Shown one piece after another: positions 4,338-31,625 of a DNA stretch of 64,000 bases. Location: IMG/VR virus record IMGVR_UViG_2703718869_000013, positions 32,001-96,000 of that record; one strand, 5' to 3'. This DNA is from a virus. Taxonomy: Duplodnaviria > Heunggongvirae > Uroviricota > Caudoviricetes. A program made the translations under genes and the position numbers. The number at the start of each line of letters is the position of its first letter. Positions within the stretch are counted from its first letter, which is position 1. The notes beneath the pieces were generated by a model, which did no database searches, was not told the origin of the DNA, and worked only from the letters and a program-made list of their open reading frames with translations.

Positions 4338-5153
4338 ATGAGCAAAAACTTTTTTCAATCCGGGGCATTTTTGGGGAATGGACTGTCTCGTTTCGCTTTG
4401 AACTCTGATCCTGTGCAGCTGATGGAGTCCGCCCGAGCAAGCGCCGAACAGCCAACAGATCCGGTTATTAATAATAATCCGGAACCGGCGGCACAGACTA
4501 ACGATAACGTTCCATCTGATCCGGCTCCTGAGCAAATCCTGGAAGGGAAAGACGGTAAAGAATGGACCGTCGAACAGGCGCACCAGATGATTCTGGAAGC
4601 TGCAAATAGAAGTGCTATGCAGAATGCGTTGAGTGATGCGGCCGACGCCGTTTTCGCCTGGGCTGATAGCGGTGATCTGACTTTCGACTCCCTTGATGGT
4701 TTCGTTCAGGCTATCGCTGGTATCTCTGATGACGACGACTCCGAAGTTACAGAAGAACAGGACGATGCCTATAACGAAGCATGGGCAAATGTTGCTGACT
4801 TCCTCGCAGCATGCGGTGTAGATGATGACCTGATCGAAGCACTGGCTGACGATGAAGACGACGACGCAGCTGCTGATGTTGGTGCCTCTATCGCTGGTTT
4901 AGATAGCGACGACCGCGACGAACTGGAAGCGGCGTTTGTTGTTGCTGGCACTTCTGATGAAATGCTGACTGAAGCATTTAAGAAGGTTGTTCGTAATGGT
5001 GAGATCAAACTCATCCGTAAACGCCTGCGTAAAAAACGTCTGACTGCGGCTCAAAAATCGGCGCTGAAAAAAGCACGCCGTAAAGCCCAGACCGGCGCGG
5101 CAAAACTGGCCCGCAAAAAGTCAATGAAACTGCGCCGTAAGCGCCTTGGCTAA
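4338..5153 (+). CDS. Hypothetical virion-associated protein, acidic body with strongly basic K/R-rich C-terminal tail
   Basis: ORF with biased composition (D/E-rich middle, KRLRKKR-type tail); followed by hairpin terminator. Confidence 0.55.
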   Translation: MSKNFFQSGAFLGNGLSRFALNSDPVQLMESARASAEQPTDPVINNNPEPAAQTNDNVPSDPAPEQILEGKDGKEWTVEQAHQMILEAANRSAMQNALSDAADAVFAWADSGDLTFDSLDGFVQAIAGISDDDDSEVTEEQDDAYNEAWANVADFLAACGVDDDLIEALADDEDDDAAADVGASIAGLDSDDRDELEAAFVVAGTSDEMLTEAFKKVVRNGEIKLIRKRLRKKRLTAAQKSALKKARRKAQTGAAKLARKKSMKLRRKRLG

Positions 5154-7317: not shown

Positions 7318-8006
7318 ACGAAAATATTAAATTTACTTTCTGTTGGAAGAGTGCTTTTTAGTAACTCCCTGTTTGTATGTGATTTTATCCTGTTTATGAC
7401 TTGGATTTTTCCCGCGTTGCTATTCATTCCTCGATGAACGTAGCCTAACGCACCAATGAAAAGATCCGTTAGCTGCAATTGTTGCACTTCATGAGATCGT
7501 ATATGTTGAATTCTGTTTATCGACTCATGATTGTAATCATAGCGATCATTGTGAAGAACTCCTCTTAATTTCTCAATTTTTTCAATACCTAAAGTATCTT
7601 TTATATCTAGGTAGATATTGTATGTGTTGTTACTTTCTATTATGTTTTTTAAGACATAAAAAAACATCTTATAATAGAAAGTATTATGATCTTGATGGAA
7701 TCGAGCATGGTCCAGTTGCTCTTTATCAGGAACAACAACACCTCTAAAGCGCAATGCTGGGTTGCTGAAGAAGTAATCTACGACCTCTAAGTAAAATTCA
7801 ACTTTGGACGCAGATACTTTAGTCCACTTGATTTCGAAATCAGGTTTTAAATTGTGTTTTAATTTTAATCCCTTGATGTCTCTAGCAATTTTTTTTGTGA
7901 TAGTGCCAGGACACCAAAGCGCACCCAATACCATGACTTTATTATGATCATTTAGTAGGTGACAGGATTCATCGCAGAATACATTAAATGTTCTTCGGTT
8001 CAACAT
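7302..8006 (-). CDS. Hypothetical protein with DUF3800-like features
   Basis: N-terminal FCDES motif and C-terminal QLQLTDLFIGAL motif resemble the DUF3800 signatures as I recall them; AT-rich codon usage. Confidence 0.45.
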   Translation of the reverse strand: MLNRRTFNVFCDESCHLLNDHNKVMVLGALWCPGTITKKIARDIKGLKLKHNLKPDFEIKWTKVSASKVEFYLEVVDYFFSNPALRFRGVVVPDKEQLDHARFHQDHNTFYYKMFFYVLKNIIESNNTYNIYLDIKDTLGIEKIEKLRGVLHNDRYDYNHESINRIQHIRSHEVQQLQLTDLFIGALGYVHRGMNSNAGKIQVINRIKSHTNRELLKSTLPTESKFNIFVWEAR

Positions 8007-20492: not shown

Positions 20493-21328
20493 TGCAGCGT
20501 TCCTGGTTTAATAACCGGCTTACATCAGCTAAGCAAAAGTCATTGCTCTATAAATCATTGGCTGATTTGGTTCAGTCAATGATGGACACCTTTGTTGACC
20601 CATGGTTGGAGCGAATTACCAACCGGAAGTCTATTTTCTCCATGAGCAAGGAGGATCTGGAGACCAGGACAAATGAACTTGGCCAGTTCTTTACTATCAG
20701 AACCTCGGACTCATCTTCCGTTCCGATGTTGTTACAACAGCGGCTTGATGAGATCCACTTTAAGGGAACTGAACGTCCTATAAACCAGACAATTTACCGC
20801 GAATTTAACGGTATTTCTGTTTTATGGGATCCGATATATGCACCGGTGGACCTTGAGCGTCATCCCTATGGCACAGTTCTAATACCAGAAAGCACATTGG
20901 AGACTACCGGCGGCACATTCGGCGAGATGTTTCTGACTTCCAGAGGGATGATCAGTATTCCCATAAACGACCTGGCCCGGACAATGGGTATTACTGGCAC
21001 GATAGATCAGTCCGCAATTACAGAAGAAATTCTCAGAAAGTTTAATCAGTTCGTAAAGCCTCTACTGCCACTGCATATAGTGTTTGATGGGCTTACGCTC
21101 TATTTGTCGGTTGTTGTAAATGAACAGGCCGACATGATCACTTTGAACGAGATTTCTGATACCGAAAAAGCATTCTGCTGGTTTGAAACTTCGGATACAA
21201 CTTCGCTTACTGGAGTTACGTCGATTAGCGCCCCGATCACCGCAACGCCTGGTGGCACTATTGTGAAAGCGACACCTACGTTTGATCGCACCCGCGCAGA
21301 TGATTTGTTGCTGGATAGCGACGCCTGA
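20489..21328 (+). CDS. Hypothetical baseplate / tail protein
   Basis: 279-aa ORF, overlapping start; by position. Confidence 0.5.
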   Translation: MMQRSWFNNRLTSAKQKSLLYKSLADLVQSMMDTFVDPWLERITNRKSIFSMSKEDLETRTNELGQFFTIRTSDSSSVPMLLQQRLDEIHFKGTERPINQTIYREFNGISVLWDPIYAPVDLERHPYGTVLIPESTLETTGGTFGEMFLTSRGMISIPINDLARTMGITGTIDQSAITEEILRKFNQFVKPLLPLHIVFDGLTLYLSVVVNEQADMITLNEISDTEKAFCWFETSDTTSLTGVTSISAPITATPGGTIVKATPTFDRTRADDLLLDSDA

Positions 21329-21406
21329 CAATCACCCCGTCCGCAGGGCGGGGTGACAAGTTACTTCTCTTACAATGAGGCTTCACAACAGTGATTAGGG
21401 AAAATC

Positions 21407-21841
21407 ATGTCTGACGTCTCAACAAACCTCTATAAGAGTCAGTTGTTGGACTATTACTATCAGCGGCGCGCTGAATCGTCCATTAACAAAGGCTCTCGAT
21501 TTTTAATCAGCAAGGCCGTTTTCGGTACCAGTTCTCTGGTTACTAAGAAAGGAGATGGCACTTATGAGATTGGAGAACTGCCAAAGGCTTTCGATCTGGC
21601 AGAACTGACCAGCCAATTTTGTACCATCAACCTCGTGCCAACCTACTCAGGTGGGATAATTACTGTCCGAATGGACCTTGATCAAAGCCAGTTGCAGGAA
21701 GGGAAAAACTACCCATTCAACACTCTGGTTGTTCTGGATAACGAGAACAAGCCAATCGCCATTATTTGTGTCCAGGAAGACTCGCTGTATGTGGGCAAAA
21801 CATATACCGCAGTTATGGCCATAAACACGACTACAGCATAA
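21407..21841 (+). CDS. Hypothetical tail protein preceding the tail fiber gene
   Basis: 144-aa ORF; stop immediately before the tail fiber start. Confidence 0.5.
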
Positions 21842-21852
21842 GGATATGCTTG

Positions 21853-24702
21853 ATGAATGACGTTACAGTTGTTACATCGGTTACTTACCCATCACCCGAG
21901 TCGTTGGCTCTGGTTGCTGATGTGCAATACCACGAACCATATCTGTCAGCCGCGCTAAACCGAAAATTCAGGGGGATTGTTGACCCGGGATTTTATGCCG
22001 GTTTCTTACCTAAGCCTGGCGGTGGGATGAACCTGTTAATCACCTCAGTGGATGGAGATAAAACCGCAGGCGCGGCGTCGGTGGATATTGGTGAATTCTA
22101 CCAGGTAACTATTCAGCAATGTACGGATATTCCTCTTGCACTTAGTGCAGGCAAGAAATATGCAATTGTGCTGAAGGGAAGATACCTCCTTGGAGAGGAT
22201 ACCTATCAGGTTAATACCGCGTCACATATTCATGCGGCTGAATTTGTTACCAGAACCTATACCGATTCATATCAGTTAGGAGATGGGGAGCTGCTTGTTT
22301 GTACGGTGAATATCCCTGCTGGAGTATCAGCCATTACCCAGGAGATGATTGATACATCCGAGCGTATTAACCGCACGATCGGCATTGATATCTCAGACTC
22401 TGTAACCAGTAGCAGAAGTGATGTTGCTGCAAGTTCGCTGGCAGTTAAAAAAGCCTACGATCTGGCGAACAGTAAGTATACGGCGCAGGATGCAAGCACA
22501 ACGCAAAAGGGATTAGTTCAGCTCAGTAGCGAAACTAACAGCGACAGCGAAACAATGGCGGCTACCCCTAAAGCCGTTAAGTCTGTAAAAGATCTTGCTG
22601 ATACCAAAGCGCCAATAGAAAGCCCGAGTCTGACAGGAACGCCAACCGCGCCGACGGCAGCGCAAGGTACAAATAGCACGCAGATCGCAAATACAGCCTT
22701 TGTTAAGGCAGCTATAACGGCACTTATCAACGGTGCACCTGGCACACTGGATACGCTTAAAGAAATAGCTGCTGCGATCAATAACGACCCGAATTTCAGC
22801 ACAACTATCAACAATGCTCTGGCTCTTAAAGCTCCTTTAGCAAGTCCTGCATTAACGGGAATACCTACTGCGCCTACCGCTGCACAGGGTACGAATAACA
22901 CGCAGATTGCTACGACCGCTTATGTAAGAGCTGCCATATCCGCATTGGTTGGTTCATCACCAGAAGCTCTTGATACCCTGAATGAGCTTGCCGCAGCACT
23001 TGGTAATGACCCGAACTTTGCGACAACAATGACAAATGCGCTGGCAGGCAAACAGCCTCTGGATGCAACTTTAACCGCGCTTGCTGGTCTTGCTACAGGC
23101 GCAAATAAATTGCCGTACTTTACCGGTACAGACACTATTTCTCAGACTGACTTAACGTCAGTCGGTCGCGATATTCTGGCCAAAACAAGCGTCCTTGCTG
23201 TTATCCAATACCTTGATTTAAGAGAACTTGGCACAAGCGGTGAAAAGATCCCCCTGTTGAGCACGGCTAACAAATGGGGTGCACGCCAGACTTTCAACGG
23301 TGGGATCACCGGGGCGCTGACAGGGAACGCCGACACCGCGACGAAATTAAAAACAGCCATAAACATTAATGGCGTCAGATTCGATGGTTCGGCTGACATT
23401 AATATCAATACTCTGGTATCTCGCGGTCGCGTAACGGCCCTAGAGGCGAATGCACAGGGAACATCCGGGATTCAGCTGTATGAGGCATACAACAATGGCT
23501 ACCCTTCCCCCTATGGCAATGTGCTTCACCTTAAAGGTGCCACCGCTGCTGGCGAAGGTGAGTTATTCATTGGCTGGAGTGGCACGAGCGGTGACCATGC
23601 GCCCGTACATATCCGTTCGCGGCGTGATACTGATTCTGCCAACTGGTCTGAATGGGCGCAGGTCTATACGTCAAAAGATTCAATTCCCGGCGTCAATGCC
23701 AAAGGGGATCAGGACACCTCTGGTAATGCGGCTACAGCGACCAAGTTGCAGACAGCATGTACTATCAATGGCGTCTCGTTTGATGGTTCTACTGATATCA
23801 CTTTAACCGCTGCGCATGTTGCTGCTTTTGCCAGAAGAGCAACGGATACGTATGCCGATGCGGATGGGGGCGTTCCCTGGAATGCCGAATCAGGCGCTTA
23901 CAATGTCATTCGCTCTGCCGACAGCTATATTCTGGTTAACTTCTATACCGGAGTCGGAAGTTGCCCGACCTTGCAGATGAAGGCGCATTACAGAAATGGT
24001 GGTCTGTTCTACCGTTCTTCAAGAGACGGTTATGGTTTTGAGGAAGACTGGGCAGAAGTTTATACCTCGAAAAATCTTCCACCAGAAAGCTACCCAGTCG
24101 GCGCACCAATCCCGTGGCCATCAGATACCGTTCCGTCTGGTTATGCCCTGATGCAGGGGCAGACTTTTGACAAATCTGCATACCCGAAACTTGCAGCGGC
24201 TTATCCGTCAGGCGTTATTCCTGATATGCGTGGCTGGACGATTAAGGGCAAGCCCGGCAGTGGTCGTGCCGTATTGTCTCAGGAACAGGACGGCATTAAA
24301 TCGCACACCCACAGCGCCAGCGCATCCAGTACGGATTTGGGGACGAAAACCACATCGTCGTTTGATTACGGTACTAAAACGACCAGTTCATTTGATTACG
24401 GCACAAAAACTACGAATAGCGCTGGAAATCATTCACACAATATACCTGTTGGTCACACTGGCGCGGGGAATGGTGTATCAGCCGGTTTTAACGCTGCGTT
24501 AGGTACTGGTACCACGTCGAGCGCAGGCGAGCATGCTCACAATGTATATATCGGTGCCCATAACCACACTATCGGCATTGGTGCTCATGCCCATTCTGTC
24601 ATTATTGGTCCCCACGGACACACCATCACCGTTAACGCTACGGGTAACGAAGAAAACACCGTAAAAAACATCGCATTTAACTATATTGTGAGGCTTGCAT
24701 AA
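21853..24702 (+). CDS. Tail fiber protein
   Basis: Repeated SP(S/A)LTG(T/I)[11 protein letters not shown](S/N)TQIA..A(F/Y)V(K/R)AAI collar-type repeats; C-terminal His-rich HxH repeats; ATG at 21853 has an AGGA Shine-Dalgarno (track ORF begins at 21766). Confidence 0.85.
24338..24414 (+). repeat. Three tandem imperfect 30-bp repeats encoding [10 protein letters not shown] inside the tail fiber gene
   Basis: Direct reading of DNA and translation. Confidence 0.7.
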
Positions 24703-25280
24703 TGACATTCAGAATGAGTGAACAATCACGGACCATAAAAATTTATAATCTACTGGCTGGAACCAATGAGTTTATTGGTGAAGGTGATGCATACATTCCA
24801 CCTCATACAGGTCTGCCTGCAAACAGTACCGATATTGCCCCGCCAGATATTCCGGCTGGCTTCGTGGCCGTTTTCAACAGTGATGAGGCATCGTGGAATC
24901 TCGTTGAAGACCATCGGGGAAAAACCGTCTATGACGTGGCTTCCGGCGACGCGTTATTTATTTCTGAACTTGGCCCATTACCGGAAAATGTCACCTGGTT
25001 ATCCCCGGAAGGGGAGTTTCAGAAGTGGAACGGCACAGCCTGGGTGAAAGATGCAGAAGCAGAAAAACTGTTCCGGATCCGGAAGGCGGAAGAAACAAAA
25101 AACAGCCTGATGCAGATGGCCAGTGAGCATATTGCGCCACTTCAGGATGCCGTAGATTTGGATATTGCGACGGAGGAAGAGGCATCGTTACTGACTGCAT
25201 GGAAGACATATCGGGTATTGTTGAATCGTGTTGATACAACAGTAGCATCGGATGTTGAGTGGCCAGTCGCCCCGCAATAA
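24702..25280 (+). CDS. Tail fiber assembly chaperone (U/Tfa family)
   Basis: 192 aa; start overlaps tail fiber stop; U/Tfa-type sequence as recalled. Confidence 0.8.
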
Positions 25281-25323
25281 AAGGATAAAGCCATCGATAG
25301 AAATATTGATGGCTTCATGTACT

Positions 25324-25896
25324 CTATTTATACAATACAACACCGCTCTTTTTTGTTATATATGTGCAGTTCGATGGTATATCTTTATTTATAAAAGACA
25401 TTGCACCTATTTTTACATTATCCCCAATTTTACGTGATAATCCAATGATGCAACAATTAGCTCCGATATCAACGTTATTACCAATTTTTACTCTTGAACC
25501 AGGCATGTCACCATCTACCTGTCCAATGGTAGTATTCTGTCGCAAAACCAGATTTTCACCAGCATCAACAGCAAAATGAACAACAATTCCAGTATGATGG
25601 GGAATTGTTAAACCTTTTCCAATATTTGCGCCCAATCCAATTTCGCAACCAAATCTGTTAATTATATTATTGTTTAACTTTCTGGCTGCTTTCTTATGTA
25701 ATTTATTGCCATTAATATACATTTCATTAGCCAGTCTCCACCAGAAAAGGAAATTCCGATTGCGCTGCTTCTTCTCTCTTAATAGTCGCCAAACATCCAT
25801 TTTTTCACGCCTGATGATTTCAGCCATCCAGTAGCTCAATAGAGCTTTTGAATTCCCGAAGATGACAAAGTGAATAGCTATTAAGTAACATAACAT
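25324..25896 (-). CDS. Hexapeptide-repeat O-acetyltransferase (serine/sugar acetyltransferase-like)
   Basis: Left-handed beta-helix hexapeptide repeats (IGLGANIGKGLTIPHHTGIVV, IGNNVDIGANCCIIG, IGDNVKIGAMS); AT-rich gene; start codon choice uncertain. Confidence 0.75.
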   Translation of the reverse strand: MLCYLIAIHFVIFGNSKALLSYWMAEIIRREKMDVWRLLREKKQRNRNFLFWWRLANEMYINGNKLHKKAARKLNNNIINRFGCEIGLGANIGKGLTIPHHTGIVVHFAVDAGENLVLRQNTTIGQVDGDMPGSRVKIGNNVDIGANCCIIGLSRKIGDNVKIGAMSFINKDIPSNCTYITKKSGVVLYK

Positions 25897-26363
25897 ATTG
25901 CAACTGCCTATATTTTTTGGTTTCTATGTTTATATATTGACATTATAATTAAAACAATAATCATCAGTGTGTTACTGCGTTCCTGCTAAACTAAATCAAC
26001 GCACAATGTAAACACAAATGTTAATTTTAAACTGAGCGCTAAAGGGATGTCAATATTGTATTGATAATGAGTTGCAAGATTGCCAACACTTTCTATATTT
26101 TTGGATGTAATAATTTATATTTTATCTATTTAGTGTTTCTTTAGACTTATTAAGGATGTCATTATTAATTTATGGCTTGCCATTTCTATACATATCTGTT
26201 AAAAATTTTGACTTGTTTGTTGAAAATAGATTTAATTGATTGGTTTATTTTTTACATGACGCTCTTTAATATAGCTTCAGGTATATATAAGCACAATGCA
26301 TTATTTCCAGAGGAAATTAACAAAATTGTTAGCTCTTATTTGTTGAGCTTATAGATATTAATT

Positions 26364-26384
26364 AAGGCCCGATTCCGGGCCTTT
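26364..26384. terminator. Hairpin GGCCCG-attc-CGGGCC with flanking A/T runs
   Basis: Stem-loop between AT-rich island and lysis genes. Confidence 0.45.
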
Positions 26385-26601
26385 CCTCATTCCGGCTTTT
26401 CGGGAAACGTTACTGGAAGGATGGAGGTATCCGTGGATTCGACTTTCTGCGCATAGAGAATCCACTCGGTTAATTTTTGTTTACCCTGAACGGAAATAAT
26501 GCCTAGCCGTAACTGTGAGTCCCAGAGCTGAGTTTTATCCCTGACGAGCTGTAGCAGGCTTTGCTTTTCTTTTTCCGCTTGTTGTCTTTGCATGACCGGT
26601 T

Positions 26602-26623
26602 GAGAAGTTACTTTGCATACCAT
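26602..26623 (+). promoter_or_regulatory. Late-promoter-like motif upstream of holin gene (GAGAAGTTACTTTGCATACCAT)
   Basis: Shares AAGT.A.TTTGCAT.. pattern with motifs upstream of lyz and head gene. Confidence 0.4.
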
Positions 26624-26651
26624 TACCTCCTGACAACGTAGGAGGGAACTT

Positions 26652-26981
26652 GTGCTTGACACACAGGAATTAGCTCCAGTTGCTATTGCGCTCCTGCTTT
26701 CAGTAATTGGTGGGATAGGCACGTTCCTGATGGATGTCCGAGACGGTCGCCAGTCTGGCAATTTGTTGGGATTGGTTACGGAGATCTTTGTTGCAGTGAC
26801 AGCTGGCGCGGTGGCGTACCTATTGGGGCAACACGAGGGCTGGGAGTTATCAATTACGTACTTAATGGTAACGATAGCCAGCAATAACGGTCATGAGGTG
26901 ATTTCAGGGATGAAACGAGTGAATATCGATAGCATTCTGAATGTTCTTACAAGTTTGGTGAAAAAGGGAGGTGGGAAATGA
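26652..26981 (+). CDS. Holin (LydA-like)
   Basis: 109 aa with two to three hydrophobic helices and charged C-terminus; GTG start with GGAGGG Shine-Dalgarno; followed by overlapping antiholin-sized ORF. Confidence 0.6.
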   Translation: MLDTQELAPVAIALLLSVIGGIGTFLMDVRDGRQSGNLLGLVTEIFVAVTAGAVAYLLGQHEGWELSITYLMVTIASNNGHEVISGMKRVNIDSILNVLTSLVKKGGGK

Positions 26982-27421
26982 TTGGCTGGGGTGTATGCGC
27001 TCTTGCGTTAGCCTTAGCCGATCGCTATTTGCTAAAACGCAAGGACATCACGCATTTAGAACTTGGTGATGTGGAAATTAAACCGGGTTTCATCCGGGTG
27101 CCGTTCAAATACCGGTCTAAATTCCCGTTTTTGCGCGGCGCAACGGTCAGATATTGGATCCGCGATGTTCAGAAGCCAACGACAGTGATTGAAGGCGAAC
27201 AACGTTGTCTGACGTCGGCTGAACAGGGCGAAAACAGTGAATGGTTGTACATACCCACTGAATATATGGGTAAAGGAGAACGGCTGTGGCATTTCAACGT
27301 CATGGTTACGCATGGCGACTCGTTCATTAACCCGTTGTATCGGATTTTCCCTGTTACTCAGCAAATCCGCAGAAGTTACGTAATAAATCTCGCACAGGAT
27401 GTGTCAGATGACGAAAAATAA
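26978..27421 (+). CDS. Antiholin-like protein (LydB position)
   Basis: 147-aa ORF overlapping holin stop; by position. Confidence 0.45.
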   Translation: MIGWGVCALALALADRYLLKRKDITHLELGDVEIKPGFIRVPFKYRSKFPFLRGATVRYWIRDVQKPTTVIEGEQRCLTSAEQGENSEWLYIPTEYMGKGERLWHFNVMVTHGDSFINPLYRIFPVTQQIRRSYVINLAQDVSDDEK

Positions 27422-28011: not shown

Positions 28012-29931
28012 ATGGAACAGTTCAATATCAATAAAGGGGTGGCGATCAAGCCTGGGCTTGACGTGCTTCCCCCGCCAGTGACTGATGATGAATATCGCGC
28101 ATTAATGGCCGGTGAGGACCGCTATCTGATGACGGAATCCAACACCCTGGAGGAAATCGAGGCTACGTTCTTCTATGACACGCCGATCCACTGGTGTGCT
28201 ACGGATTTACTGGAGGCGATTAGTTCTACTCGTTTGCAGCTACACCGGACCATGCAGGCATTTGTCCGGGCATTGAACCAGAAGCTGAATGGTACCGGAA
28301 TCTCTGCGGGGAGTGATAAAACGGGGGACGTGGCCCAGAACGGTGCACGCGCGATCGGCGGGGCTGAAATTGGCCGGGCGCGTAACGTTAACGGGCTGCC
28401 GGTTCTGCCAGCCATTATTCCGCTCAGTGATGGTCAGACTATCAGCATTCTGTTTCATAGCCCGACAGCGGAAAACCGGATCACCAATAGCGATACGCTG
28501 ATTGCTTTCCAGTTCTTACTGAATAAAAAAGACGTTACTCATACCGTTGCTCCGATGAGTGGACGTGATATGACGCTGGCGCAGGTCACCATGAAACTTG
28601 CCAACCTTGCAGAGAAAAACTCGGCAAAATTCCAGCGTGCGCAGAAGAAGAAAAAAGCCCTGGTTGATGAAATAACCCAACTACAGGCTGACAGTGACCA
28701 GAAAGAGGATGCCATGAGCGACCTCGCGGATCAGGTGGCAGCGGTAGAAGGCCAGAAGGCAGATCTGGAGCAGAAAATTAACGTGGTTGCTTCGGAAGCG
28801 GATTCTCTTTATCAAGAAAATGAGCGTTTGCAGGCGGAGATTGATCAGCTCAATCGCACTGGTGGGCGCGATACCATTGCTCCTGCGGGGATGACTGGTG
28901 GGCACTCTCGCGTGCTGACGGATCGCCTTGCCAGTATCAAAAATCGTATGCATATGGACGGGGAAGCGACGCTCAGTAATGGTGCATCAATGAAGCAATT
29001 CATTGGGGATGGCGAAGGGTATATCCAGTTAACCGATCCGGATGGCAGCGTATACATGATCAAGGCTAAATCCATACAGGGTGTGGACATGGCAGATGCG
29101 ATCGGCAAGCTGTTTAAAGCCTATAAAGCGGGTAATGTATCGGAATACCTGGTCCAACCAGAAGAACATAAACCGGAAAACGTCGAACCTGAACCAGCGG
29201 AGGATACCGGTAGCTCTTCGCCTGAACCAGAAGTCTCTGTAGGTGCATATCGATATGCCCTGCAAATGCGTCCGGCGGCCCCTGGCGCAATACCTGAAGG
29301 TAACAAAGCAATTCTGCCGCGCCCTGATGAAGGTGACCCGTATTATGAATATGCACGCTACGGCATTGCTACTTACGATACCCCGCTTTCTGATCAGCAA
29401 ATGAGTGAGTACGACCTGAAGTTATTGCCTCGCGAGGATTCTTTCGACTTCCTGGCGAAGACACTTACTAATGGTCCGTTTGGCAAATATGCACAAAAAG
29501 CTCTGGATCTGGCCACCAGCTCACCAGACGAGTTCCGCGTAATGCTGAAAACTCAGTTTCAAAAAACTTTCCCCAATATTGCGTTTCCGGGGGGCGCTGG
29601 CACCGAGAAAATGGTGCAGAGCATGATCAATGCATTGCAGGCCGAAGTCGGTGAGATTACTCAGCCAGAACCTGCCCCGGCACAGCCTGATGAAACGGTT
29701 AGCGAAGCAGATGCAGAGGCTAATAAAGCCATTGAATATCTCAATAACGTGATGGATATGCAAAGCACTGACATGGCGGAGATCCGTAACGCCCGGGGTA
29801 ATGTCCGGGAAGCGATTGCAGCCCTTCAGGCTGCCGGGCGTTTTGAGGAAAACGAAGAGCTGGTTAATGGCGCTGCTCGCCACCTGGCTGATCTGCTGGT
29901 AGCAATCCAGAAAGCGGGGGTAGCGGCATGA
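28012..29931 (+). CDS. DarA-like antirestriction/head-internal protein
   Basis: 639-aa ORF in the position and size expected for P1 DarA; no catalytic motif recognised. Confidence 0.5.
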   Translation: MEQFNINKGVAIKPGLDVLPPPVTDDEYRALMAGEDRYLMTESNTLEEIEATFFYDTPIHWCATDLLEAISSTRLQLHRTMQAFVRALNQKLNGTGISAGSDKTGDVAQNGARAIGGAEIGRARNVNGLPVLPAIIPLSDGQTISILFHSPTAENRITNSDTLIAFQFLLNKKDVTHTVAPMSGRDMTLAQVTMKLANLAEKNSAKFQRAQKKKKALVDEITQLQADSDQKEDAMSDLADQVAAVEGQKADLEQKINVVASEADSLYQENERLQAEIDQLNRTGGRDTIAPAGMTGGHSRVLTDRLASIKNRMHMDGEATLSNGASMKQFIGDGEGYIQLTDPDGSVYMIKAKSIQGVDMADAIGKLFKAYKAGNVSEYLVQPEEHKPENVEPEPAEDTGSSSPEPEVSVGAYRYALQMRPAAPGAIPEGNKAILPRPDEGDPYYEYARYGIATYDTPLSDQQMSEYDLKLLPREDSFDFLAKTLTNGPFGKYAQKALDLATSSPDEFRVMLKTQFQKTFPNIAFPGGAGTEKMVQSMINALQAEVGEITQPEPAPAQPDETVSEADAEANKAIEYLNNVMDMQSTDMAEIRNARGNVREAIAALQAAGRFEENEELVNGAARHLADLLVAIQKAGVAA

Positions 29932-30293: not shown

Positions 30294-31625
30294 CATCCTC
30301 CACGCCCCGAAGGGCGTGGATTCCTGCTACGTTCAGGCTGTCGCCTGAATCATTTCGGTGGGTTCCTGCTTCAACGGGCGGCCTGACTGCACCATCCCTC
30401 CACAGGCAAGTACGGCGTGTCCCGCCGCTAAAATGTTACGAGCGCCGTTTACATCGGCGTTCGCTGTATATCCACATACCTGGCATCTGAATTTACTTTG
30501 TGACAGGCGATTTTCTTTCGCTGTATGACCACAGCACGCGCAACGCTGGCTTGTGTACGCTGGCGGAACAGCAAGCACCTGACCGCCACGCCAGAGCTGC
30601 TTGTACTCAAGCTGGCGGCGCATTTCATACCAGCCCTGATCCAGTATCGAACGGTTTAAACCTGATTTTGCCCGGACATTGCGACCCGGATGACTTATCG
30701 TTCCCGCCGCTGACTTTGACATGTATTTAACCTTCAAATCCTCAATGACAATCATTGCGTGGTTTTTGCTGATGATCGTTGTGACTTTATGAAGGTAGTC
30801 TCTGCGGATATTTGCGATACGAAAATGCAGTCGCTGTATTTTGCGTTTCTGCTTCTGCCAGTTGTTGCTGAATTTGACCTTGCGGCTTAACTGTCGCTGA
30901 AGTCTCGCCAGCTTCTTCTGGTTTTTCTGAAAACTGTTTACAGGCTCAAAGACTGTGCCATCTGACAGCGTGGCGAGTTTAGCCACGCCAGCATCCAGCC
31001 CGATCATTGATGCTGAAGGGTGAACCGGAGTGGATATTTCACTTTCTGTCTGAATACTGATGTACCACTTACCGCAGGACTGGCTGACAGTGACATTTTT
31101 CACAACTCCCGTGACCTGACGGCTATTCCGGTAGCGCATCCAGCCCAGTTTCGGCAGAAAAATACGGCTGTTTTCCTGATCGAGCTTAACGCCCTGCGGG
31201 TAGCGAAATGCATCATTCTGTCCCCGCTTTTTGAATCGGGGAAAAGCAGCCCGATTCTGGAAGAAGTTTTTGTAAGCCCGCTCAAGGTCTTTCAGTGACT
31301 GTTGCAATGGCTGTGAGGGAGAATCTATAAGCCATTCGGTTTCAGTGTCTTTTTTCCACTCAACCAACCAGGAAGCCATTTTCGTGTAAGGGATGTATTT
31401 TTTACCGGCCTCATGATTCTCATTCTGAAGCGCCAGAGCACGGTTGAAAACGAAACGACAAGCTCCGGCAAAGTGCCTCATTTGACACTCCTGTTGACCA
31501 TCTGGTTTTAACCGGAATTTGAATGACACCTGTTGTTTCATGTCACTATTTTAAGCAAAAATAGCCGGGAGGAAAACTGTGCCTTATATCCCCACTATGA
31601 GGAGCGTAGGGGGCGGCACATTGGA
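30294..31625 (-). mobile_element. TnpB-only IS200/IS605-family element (approximate ends)
   Basis: Single tnpB gene, no tnpA; perfect hairpin CCACGCCC-cgaa-GGGCGTGG at about 30300-30319 next to the tnpB 3' end; imperfect hairpin near the other end; element ends are inferred. Confidence 0.6.
30333..31541 (-). CDS. tnpB: TnpB (RuvC-like, zinc-ribbon) transposon-associated nuclease
   Basis: 402 aa; C-terminal CACCGH..C..CGY zinc-ribbon and RuvC-like segments typical of OrfB/TnpB. Confidence 0.85.

Follow-up and report, generated by a model that had tools for sequence, protein, structure and literature searches.

We analysed 64,000 nucleotides of a tailed phage (positions 32,001 to 96,000 of the IMG/VR virus record IMGVR_UViG_2703718869_000013; this whole stretch is the window below), which belong to a P1-like phage-plasmid of Escherichia coli. 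Just beyond the tail-fibre genes, and facing them, lies a gene for a 190-amino-acid acetyltransferase whose product may alter the surface of the lysogen. The gene and its immediate surroundings are as follows.

21766 to 24702, plus strand: tail fibre gene S, an open reading frame of 978 amino acids (Pfam Phage_fiber_2, Collar and gp37_C)
24702 to 25280, plus strand: tfa, the gene for a lambda Tfa-type chaperone of tail-fibre assembly (Pfam Caudo_TAP, E = 8e-43; about 90% DNA identity to lambda tfa)
25288 to 25315: stem-loop of 12 bp that separates the stop of tfa from that of the convergent acetyltransferase gene (folding energy -17 kcal/mol; z = -2.8 and -3.6)
25324 to 25896, minus strand: acetyltransferase, a left-handed beta-helix protein of a short form that resembles serine acetyltransferases and WcaB/EpsC (open reading frame list, profile and structure searches)
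25897 to 26363: spacer upstream of the acetyltransferase gene, 26% G+C, without a conserved open reading frame
26024 to 26053, minus strand: sigma-70-like promoter candidate, TTGACA-18-TAAAAT (11 of 12 consensus positions), 128 nt upstream of the ATG

The tfa stop and the acetyltransferase open reading frame are 43 bp apart. The G+C content, 46.8% over the whole window, drops from about 48% to 27-37% between 25250 and 26450, and it is 35.1% in the acetyltransferase gene and 26.2% in the 467-bp spacer. (We refer to the gene and the spacer together as the island.) An initial annotation, made from the letters of the sequence, had placed a minus-strand gene for 190 amino acids in AT-rich DNA directly after the chaperone, and its coordinates, strand, length and composition were all correct.

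The acetyltransferase open reading frame is a real gene under purifying selection, because its product matches a phage protein family over its full length (PHROG 2154, "unknown function", E = 1.9e-83; residues 13-190 align with positions 3-181 of the 185 in the profile), because it has 363 homologues at E ≤ 1e-5, and because the ratio of nonsynonymous to synonymous substitution rates (dN/dS) is 0.15-0.21 in pairwise comparisons of five copies of the gene. (For the O111/O157 pair, dN/dS is 0.07.) The top-scoring homologues are mostly about 190 amino acids long and cover nearly the complete query, and the 190-codon frame is unbroken in all five of the compared copies.

That the product is a left-handed beta-helix acetyltransferase, as the initial annotation proposed, was borne out by profile searches, by a structural model, and by structure comparison. 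The Pfam Hexapep match has E = 1.9e-5, with a score (24.6 bits) slightly below the gathering score of 27, and 23 left-handed beta-helix families of NCBIfam match, the best of them being EpsC (E = 9.6e-22). An AlphaFold model with 24 homologues as input has a predicted local distance difference test score (pLDDT) of 91.7 and a predicted template modelling score (pTM) of 0.85; in it, five helices at the N-terminus (residues 2-82) precede the beta-helix, whose strands run from residue 84 on. Foldseek matched this model to proteins in the PDB with a probability of 1.0, and the 50 matches listed were serine acetyltransferases only (template modelling scores of 0.68-0.75, 19-29% identity). A sequence search of the PDB agreed with this ranking, with CysE on top (best E = 1e-13).

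The protein resembles the serine acetyltransferase CysE (PDB entries 1t3d, 7ra4, and 6wye) in having N-terminal helices ahead of a left-handed beta-helix and in its catalytic histidine and acidic residue. HMMER alignments pair His100 with the catalytic His158 of CysE and Glu85 with Asp143. In an alignment of 24 family members that share 43-87% identity with the window protein, at least 90% have His100, and all have glutamate or aspartate at position 85. The five N-terminal helices of the model superpose on the N-terminal domain of serine acetyltransferases; a Pfam scan of the acetyltransferase found no match to the SATase_N domain.

The positions with which CysE binds serine are not conserved. 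The position of Asp157 is taken by Pro99; Arg192 aligns with Arg135, in a column that varies among family members (R, H, I, C, K, Y, N, or V); and His193 aligns with a gap. For Asp92, the alignments gave no assignable counterpart. The loop that bears the latter two positions (residues 126-135) differs in sequence and in length even among close homologues. CysE is also longer (about 270 amino acids, against 190), while the window protein stops about 10 residues past the beta-helix (...GVVLYK) and does not have a C-terminal CysK-binding tail. The context of the gene is phage, not cysteine metabolism. The scores against curated CysE models fall far below their cut-offs (65.6 against 210.65 for cysE, TIGR01172; 42.2 against 397 for PRK11132).

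In size and domain layout, the protein is comparable to WcaB (colanic acid synthesis, TIGR04016) and EpsC (NF041874), and it has relatives in lipopolysaccharide (LPS) and polysaccharide gene clusters. It differs from both in that its gene sits between phage tail-fibre genes and belongs to a phage group of its own (PHROG 2154), and the curated cut-offs were missed here as well (WcaB, 56.5 against 194.65, E = 2.2e-15; EpsC, 77.5 against 150). The comparison of CysE with WcaB-type enzymes that the initial annotation suggested as a check therefore leans towards a sugar-type enzyme, given the serine-binding positions and the LPS and polysaccharide loci of the relatives, and it stops short of every equivalog cut-off for CysE, WcaB, and EpsC. 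From the alignments and the model, we conclude that the protein is probably an active acetyl-CoA-dependent O-acetyltransferase of the left-handed beta-helix type, from a clade that resembles serine acetyltransferases, and that it is probably not an orthologue of CysE.

The gene is widespread. Of 5,426 complete E. coli genomes, 530 (about 10%) carry a close copy (roughly 90% identity or more), at 533 chromosomal places and 66 plasmid places, and the lineages that carry one include O157:H7, O111, O26, and O104:H4. Close copies nearly always adjoin a tail-fibre assembly gene, in prophage or phage-plasmid DNA. In the P2-like prophages of O157:H7 and O111, copies that are 88-94% identical lie between the tail-fibre assembly gene and the tail operon, usually in antisense. 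This slot corresponds to the Z/fun region of P2-like prophages, which has the tail-fibre assembly gene (G) on one side and the sheath/tube genes or the tail operon on the other. Z/fun is known as a hotspot for accessory genes, and fibre genes and invertases are swapped there too (10.1101/2024.10.15.618418). The gene in the window has no similarity to Z/fun itself, and unlike in the P2-like prophages, the slot has here been transplanted into a genome of the P1 type.

Citrobacter phage phiNP, Hafnia phage yong2, E. coli phage 613R2, and a remnant of a Salmonella prophage have more distant homologues (32-54% identical) in this same slot. We also tallied the two genes on each side of the homologue at 24 non-redundant IMG/VR loci and found Caudo_TAP 16 times, Collar 12 times, Phage_fiber_2 9 times, DUF4376 and sheath 5 times each, and tube 3 times; the sheath and tube proteins (Phage_sheath_1, Phage_tube) are across the homologue from Caudo_TAP. 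(Our analyses of neighbours used crude gene calling by longest open reading frame and pooled Pfam counts, so these figures are approximate.) In phage 613R2 (locus L006, 283-1427), Tfa is 77% identical to Tfa of the window and the acetyltransferase is only 32% identical. Thus the slot is conserved, but its alleles are exchanged independently. In prophages of E. coli chromosomes whose homologue is 55% identical (loci L008-L010, at about 4660-4803), a gene for a hok/gef-type toxin is found some 200 bp upstream of the homologue, at the end of the prophage and beside a gene for a heavy-metal P-type ATPase.

The backbone around the island is that of P1: R, the N-terminal part of S, lydA, lydB, hdf, darA, and ddrA have 96-99.8% identity to P1, and positions 21000-23791, which include the N-terminal part of S, have 96% identity by blastn. 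From about position 23792, the tip of S is foreign. Over 24091-24702 it is about 90% identical to lambda stf, in a segment that is also found in a P2-like prophage. In all, the foreign DNA between the P1-like part of S (which ends at 23791) and a hairpin at 26364 comprises the fibre tip, tfa, the acetyltransferase gene, and the 467-bp spacer. The Sv-U cassette of P1 was replaced by this foreign block of fibre tip, tfa, and acetyltransferase gene. Because 1,798 contiguous bases of the window (24091-25888, covering the fibre tip, tfa, and the acetyltransferase gene) are 93.5% identical to a P2-like prophage of O111, we conclude that the acetyltransferase gene moved as a passenger of a cassette of fibre tip and chaperone.

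The island is 100% identical to that of about 16 plasmids of enterohaemorrhagic E. coli (EHEC) such as pO111, which are 87-100 kb in size and include NC_013370.1 (E. coli O111:H- 11128), and it is 97% identical to that of phage vB_EcoM-Ro157c2YLVW (a Punavirus; Ro157 below). The spacer has a narrower distribution than the gene: it was found in 65 of the 5,426 complete E. coli genomes, always on P1-like plasmids, with no chromosomal copy. It has diverged by about 6% from the spacers of Ro157 and of phage JL22. A scan of positions 25000-26800 with Rfam found no credible match in the spacer. The one sizeable open reading frame within it, for 60 hydrophobic amino acids (26172 to 26354, plus strand), is probably no gene, given that JL22 and Ro157 have a frameshift in its C-terminal third. 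The only strong match in the Rfam scan was a full-length one to IS009 (RF02111) at 25045-25243 on the plus strand (192 bits, against a gathering score of 117), within the 3' part of tfa. This "RNA family" match is a conserved segment of the coding sequence for tail-fibre assembly proteins.

In P1, the fibre genes lie in the invertible C segment. U and U' are convergent and 28 bp apart, and past U' come Sv' and then cin. The 28-bp gap between U' and U is a hairpin (AAGGCCCG-ATAG-CGGGCCTT), and in the lineage of the window a block of about 1.1 kb is found there. The island is also found in JL22 (ON018986.2), where it is 95-96% identical and lies inside a complete C segment of the P1 type, in which stf and tfa face the acetyltransferase gene, U', Sv', and cin, all on the other strand, and lydC and lydA follow. 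In the window, the corresponding features are:

23204 to 23223: orphan cix site TCCAATACCTTGATTTAAGA (fuzzy search with P1 cixL and cixR)
26364 to 26383: P1-type hairpin AAGGCCCG-ATTC-CGGGCCTT (folding energy -15.8 kcal/mol), the right edge of the inserted block
26387 to 26623, minus strand: remnant of the alternative tail-fibre assembly gene U', its C-terminal 78 codons, 237 nt (phrog_3792, E = 2e-32; positions 102-177 of the 178 of phrog_136)
26570 to 26591: deletion junction (by blastn, 26569 in the window equals 7968 in the JL22 locus L002, and 26592 equals 10867)
26652 to 27421, plus strand: lydA (holin) and lydB (Pfam Phage_holin_3_3; LydB, E = 4.6e-103), 99.8% identity to P1

The window therefore resembles the C segment of P1 in the order of its backbone (R, S, ..., lydA, lydB, hdf, darA), in a cix site and left arm within S, and in the U'-U hairpin, but cin, Sv', the second cix site, the right arm, and lydC are missing, and U' is truncated. 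The U' remnant has 86% DNA identity to U' of P1 and is labelled as U' in the annotation of Ro157; it is a vestige of the inverted Sv'-U' cassette, and it now adjoins the upstream region of lydA. The left 0.6-kb repeat arm survives within S (23203-23791). We found one cix-like site in the window, against two in JL22. This site has a single mismatch to cixR of P1, a change from G to A within the central CCTTGG crossover core (relative to both P1 and JL22).

The initial annotation had reported that the locus has no recombinase, and a tblastn search of the entire 64-kb window with Cin of P1 agrees (best E = 3.7). It had also reported that there is no inverted duplicate of the fibre segment. This is right in that the window has no long inverted repeat (in JL22, the arms are 602 nt long and 99% complementary), but the U' remnant, the orphan cix site, and the single arm had been missed. 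Its placement of the acetyltransferase gene "where P1 has cin" was loose: what was once the invertible segment has the island at its middle, and P1 has U' directly after U. The suggestion that the acetyltransferase gene is there instead of cin and the invertible segment is wrong in its details. We rejected the gene as a replacement of cin, as JL22 carries both, along with an intact segment.

Because positions 7968 and 10867 of JL22 face positions 26569 and 26592 of the window, we conclude that a deletion of about 2.9 kb occurred in the lineage of the window. Relative to JL22, the missing DNA comprises the 5' part of U', Sv', the right repeat arm with its cix site, cin, and lydC. This deletion froze the segment, with the lambda-type fibre as the one that is expressed. 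Inversion is impossible twice over, with cin gone and the core of the cix site altered. The arrival of the acetyltransferase gene and the loss of cin are two independent events. Among about 485 records of P1-like plasmids in PLSDB, 20 have the deleted arrangement of the window, 13 have the island with an intact U', and the remainder do not have the island.

The loss of the holin-like gene lydC leaves about 60 bp 5' of lydA, in the stretch 26570-26651, where P1 has the late promoter LPdar. Further along the backbone, darA is intact in the window (28012-29931); it is annotated as frameshifted in a near-identical EHEC plasmid, pE2865-1 (locus L099, 7732-9650). Directly after ddrA, at the position of ddrB in P1, there is a gene for a 402-amino-acid TnpB of the IS200/IS605 type (30333-31541, minus strand), with the domains OrfB_IS605, Cas12f1-like_TNB, and HTH_OrfB_IS605. 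It looks like an insertion in the region of the dar operon.

Two signals bear on the expression of the acetyltransferase gene. The promoter candidate in the spacer is the best sigma-70-like match of the region, it is on the strand of the acetyltransferase gene, and both of its hexamers are unchanged in JL22 and Ro157. The stem-loop between the gene and tfa is also present in JL22 as the same inverted repeat, with a U-rich tail after it on the minus strand, and it looks like a bidirectional terminator.

All of the clues to the substrate amount to guilt by association. Two come from phage-type contexts. In a prophage of Xenorhabdus bovienii (locus L013, 5001-6393), a homologue is followed by a Glyco_transf_25 gene, and the pair lies between an integrase gene and a tail fibre gene. 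In two IMG/VR contigs (L162, 912-2442; L163, 3074-4607), a homologue is paired with an HtrL_YibB gene; in E. coli, htrL adjoins the LPS core cluster. Such pairs of a homologue and an LPS-type enzyme suggest two-gene modules for surface modification. Among chromosomal relatives, a homologue from Pseudomonas abyssi that is 43% identical over nearly its full length lies between hldE-msbA and genes of the NeuB, GNAT, and GT28 families, and a homologue from Leminorella adjoins a Wzy_C gene. More broadly, the 118 immediate neighbours of distant homologues include 19 glycosyltransferases of the GT1/GT4 type, 9 of the GT2 type, 3 Wzy_C proteins, and 3 Acyl_transf_3 proteins. The same 118 also include 4 CysS (tRNA-synt_1e) and 3 CysK-like (PALP) proteins, which mark a minority of true CysE genes.

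Taking these observations together, we favour the view that this is an accessory gene (a "moron") that is expressed in the lysogen and whose product O-acetylates a cell-surface glycan; we give this a probability of roughly 0.45, so it should be read as tentative. On this account, the enzyme would be a soluble, cytoplasmic, acetyl-CoA-dependent and presumably trimeric protein, a short relative of the serine acetyltransferases, of the sort that occurs in polysaccharide loci. Its gene fills a conserved slot of temperate myoviruses, just past the tail-fibre assembly gene and facing it; the cassette that carries it replaced Sv-U inside the Cin-invertible C segment, and the 2.9-kb deletion came later. 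In the lysogen, transcription of the gene would start at a sigma-70 promoter of its own, within the AT-rich spacer, and would stop at the hairpin that it shares with tfa. With His100 as the general base, the enzyme would move the acetyl group from acetyl-CoA to a hydroxyl of the acceptor. This acceptor would not be L-serine but a glycan intermediate at the cytoplasmic face of the membrane, such as lipid A-core before flipping, an undecaprenyl pyrophosphate-linked O-unit, enterobacterial common antigen (ECA), or colanic acid. The new O-acetyl group at the surface would bring about lysogenic conversion, with possible changes in antigenicity and possibly lower adsorption of other phages.

The best functional analogue of this role is NeuO from prophage CUS-3 of E. 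coli K1, which is also a soluble left-handed beta-helix acetyltransferase encoded by an accessory gene of a prophage. In K1, NeuO acetylates the polysialic acid of the capsule and improves survival against a capsule-specific K1 phage (PMC3046976, PMC13001214). By this analogy, receptor modification, and with it the lysogenic conversion or exclusion that the initial annotation had suggested, is plausible for the acetyltransferase of the window. By our searches, the two show no sequence relationship: although a structure of NeuO is present in the PDB (PMC3046976), NeuO was absent among the 34 PDB sequences at E ≤ 0.001 and among the 50 Foldseek matches listed for the window protein. NeuO also has a 5' heptanucleotide variable-number tandem repeat, which gives phase variation, and no tandem repeat was found at 25200-26700 of the window with a minimum score of 30. 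The carriers differ as well, in that NeuO is carried by a P22-like prophage in K1 hosts, while the carriers of the window gene are P1-like and P2-like and its hosts are EHEC serotypes.

Several observations weigh against a glycan acceptor or against a lysogen-expressed surface enzyme. The closest solved structures and the best-scoring models are serine acetyltransferases. Many of the distant homologues in polysaccharide clusters align only over residues 82-190 or so and may represent other subfamilies of left-handed beta-helix proteins. Many of the full-length homologues with 40-50% identity are orphans in unrelated chromosomal contexts, between housekeeping genes. (The contexts of full-length homologues were taken from species-representative genomes, and the picture is mixed.) The region has 11 promoter-like sites, a number not much higher than the 6.2 ± 2.6 of shuffled sequences, and the promoter candidate is a consensus match in AT-rich DNA. 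A link to the receptor of the adjacent fibre is not obvious, as the receptor of lambda Stf-type fibres is a protein, OmpC. Finally, the divergence of the acetyltransferase tracks that of Tfa only weakly (Spearman rho = 0.24, Mantel p of about 0.11, 14 loci), which argues against a dedicated pairing of the enzyme with the adjacent fibre.

The gene could instead encode a true minimal serine O-acetyltransferase, a metabolic gene that raises the supply of O-acetylserine and cysteine and that, without the C-terminal tail, could escape feedback by cysteine and binding by CysK. Among solved proteins, the best hits by sequence and by structure are indeed all CysE, the pair of catalytic histidine and acidic residue is kept, public records label the gene as serine acetyltransferase, and a minority of the distant homologues lie beside the CysS and CysK-like genes counted above. 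However, the set of PDB matches includes no solved chain of WcaB or EpsC, so the ranking of CysE is biased by what has been solved, and the scores are far under every CysE cut-off. Asp157 is replaced by proline, the position of Arg192 is variable, and His193 lies opposite a gap; the variability of loop 126-135 among close homologues would be unexpected for an enzyme with a fixed small substrate; and no phage context that we examined has a neighbour from the cysteine pathway. We consider a serine acetyltransferase unlikely. There is a somewhat better chance, albeit still a low one, that the gene, as cargo of the tail-fibre/Z-fun hotspot, serves in anti-phage defence or in competition, with a non-glycan acceptor (a small molecule, an antibiotic-like compound, or a protein of phage or host) and no change to any receptor. 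The Z/fun slot of P2 is a classical hotspot for accessory genes, the cargo in the neighbourhood elsewhere includes an Abi-family gene, hicAB, and hok, and an AT-rich gene with its own promoter candidate would fit such cargo. Yet the defence-protein models of PADLOC-DB gave no matching family even at E ≤ 1, the papers on P2/P4 hotspots that we consulted make no mention of acetyltransferases, and the associations with glycan enzymes favour a sugar acceptor.

It is also conceivable that the enzyme serves the biology of its own fibre, either by acetylating the receptor glycan of the producing cell late in infection so that progeny escape from debris or by modifying the fibre or the chaperone. The gene is linked to the fibre tip and tfa in a 1.8-kb block that P2-like and P1-like elements have in common, and in JL22 it lies within the invertible fibre segment, in the same orientation as U' and Sv'. 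We nevertheless regard this as very improbable: the gene is convergent with the expressed fibre operon, with a hairpin in between and a separate promoter candidate; its alleles and those of Tfa have been reshuffled, as the 613R2 identities and the weak correlation above illustrate; and about 450 of the about 485 P1-like plasmids do not have it, so it is dispensable for virion production. A functionless hitch-hiker that came with the fibre cassette seems just as improbable. Transfer en bloc with the fibre tip and tfa would be expected of one, and the surroundings are decaying (the U' remnant, the lost cin, the orphan cix site), but the frame is intact in five copies with the dN/dS of 0.15-0.21 given above, the catalytic residues are conserved across 24 family members, and the gene is kept in about 10% of complete E. 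coli genomes.

A more specific version of the glycan O-acetylation that we favour would make the enzyme a partner of the fibre in receptor editing: temperate myoviruses would exchange modules of fibre tip, chaperone, and glycan acetyltransferase, and the lysogen would mask the glycan that phages with related fibres use. In P1-like relatives with an intact C segment, such as JL22, late transcription that runs on from the fibre operon would get to the gene in only one orientation of the segment, which would tie surface editing to the choice of fibre. We think this improbable; the weak co-divergence with Tfa, the hairpin, and the separate promoter candidate argue against a tight coupling of fibre and acetyltransferase.

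The gene itself is already annotated, and it has been mentioned in print. RefSeq and GenBank records annotate it as "serine O-acetyltransferase", the paper on JL22 mentions it and describes the reason for its presence as "still unknown" (PMC9603915), and the paper on phiNP lists the homologue as "fitness" cargo and gives no function (PMC6456863). In the literature that we searched, we found no functional study of a phage "serine acetyltransferase" of this kind. As such, it is an ordinary accessory gene, of the kind of the prophage-borne left-handed beta-helix acetyltransferases.

The locus illustrates how fibre cassettes and their passengers move between P2-like and P1-like elements, and how a deletion can lead to the loss of the host-range switch of P1. 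If the gene does O-acetylate the LPS core, the O-antigen, ECA, or colanic acid, then it would be a widespread and unrecognised factor of lysogenic conversion. In that case it would affect susceptibility to phages, with consequences for phage therapy and for the phage typing of EHEC, and possibly also serology and immune recognition.

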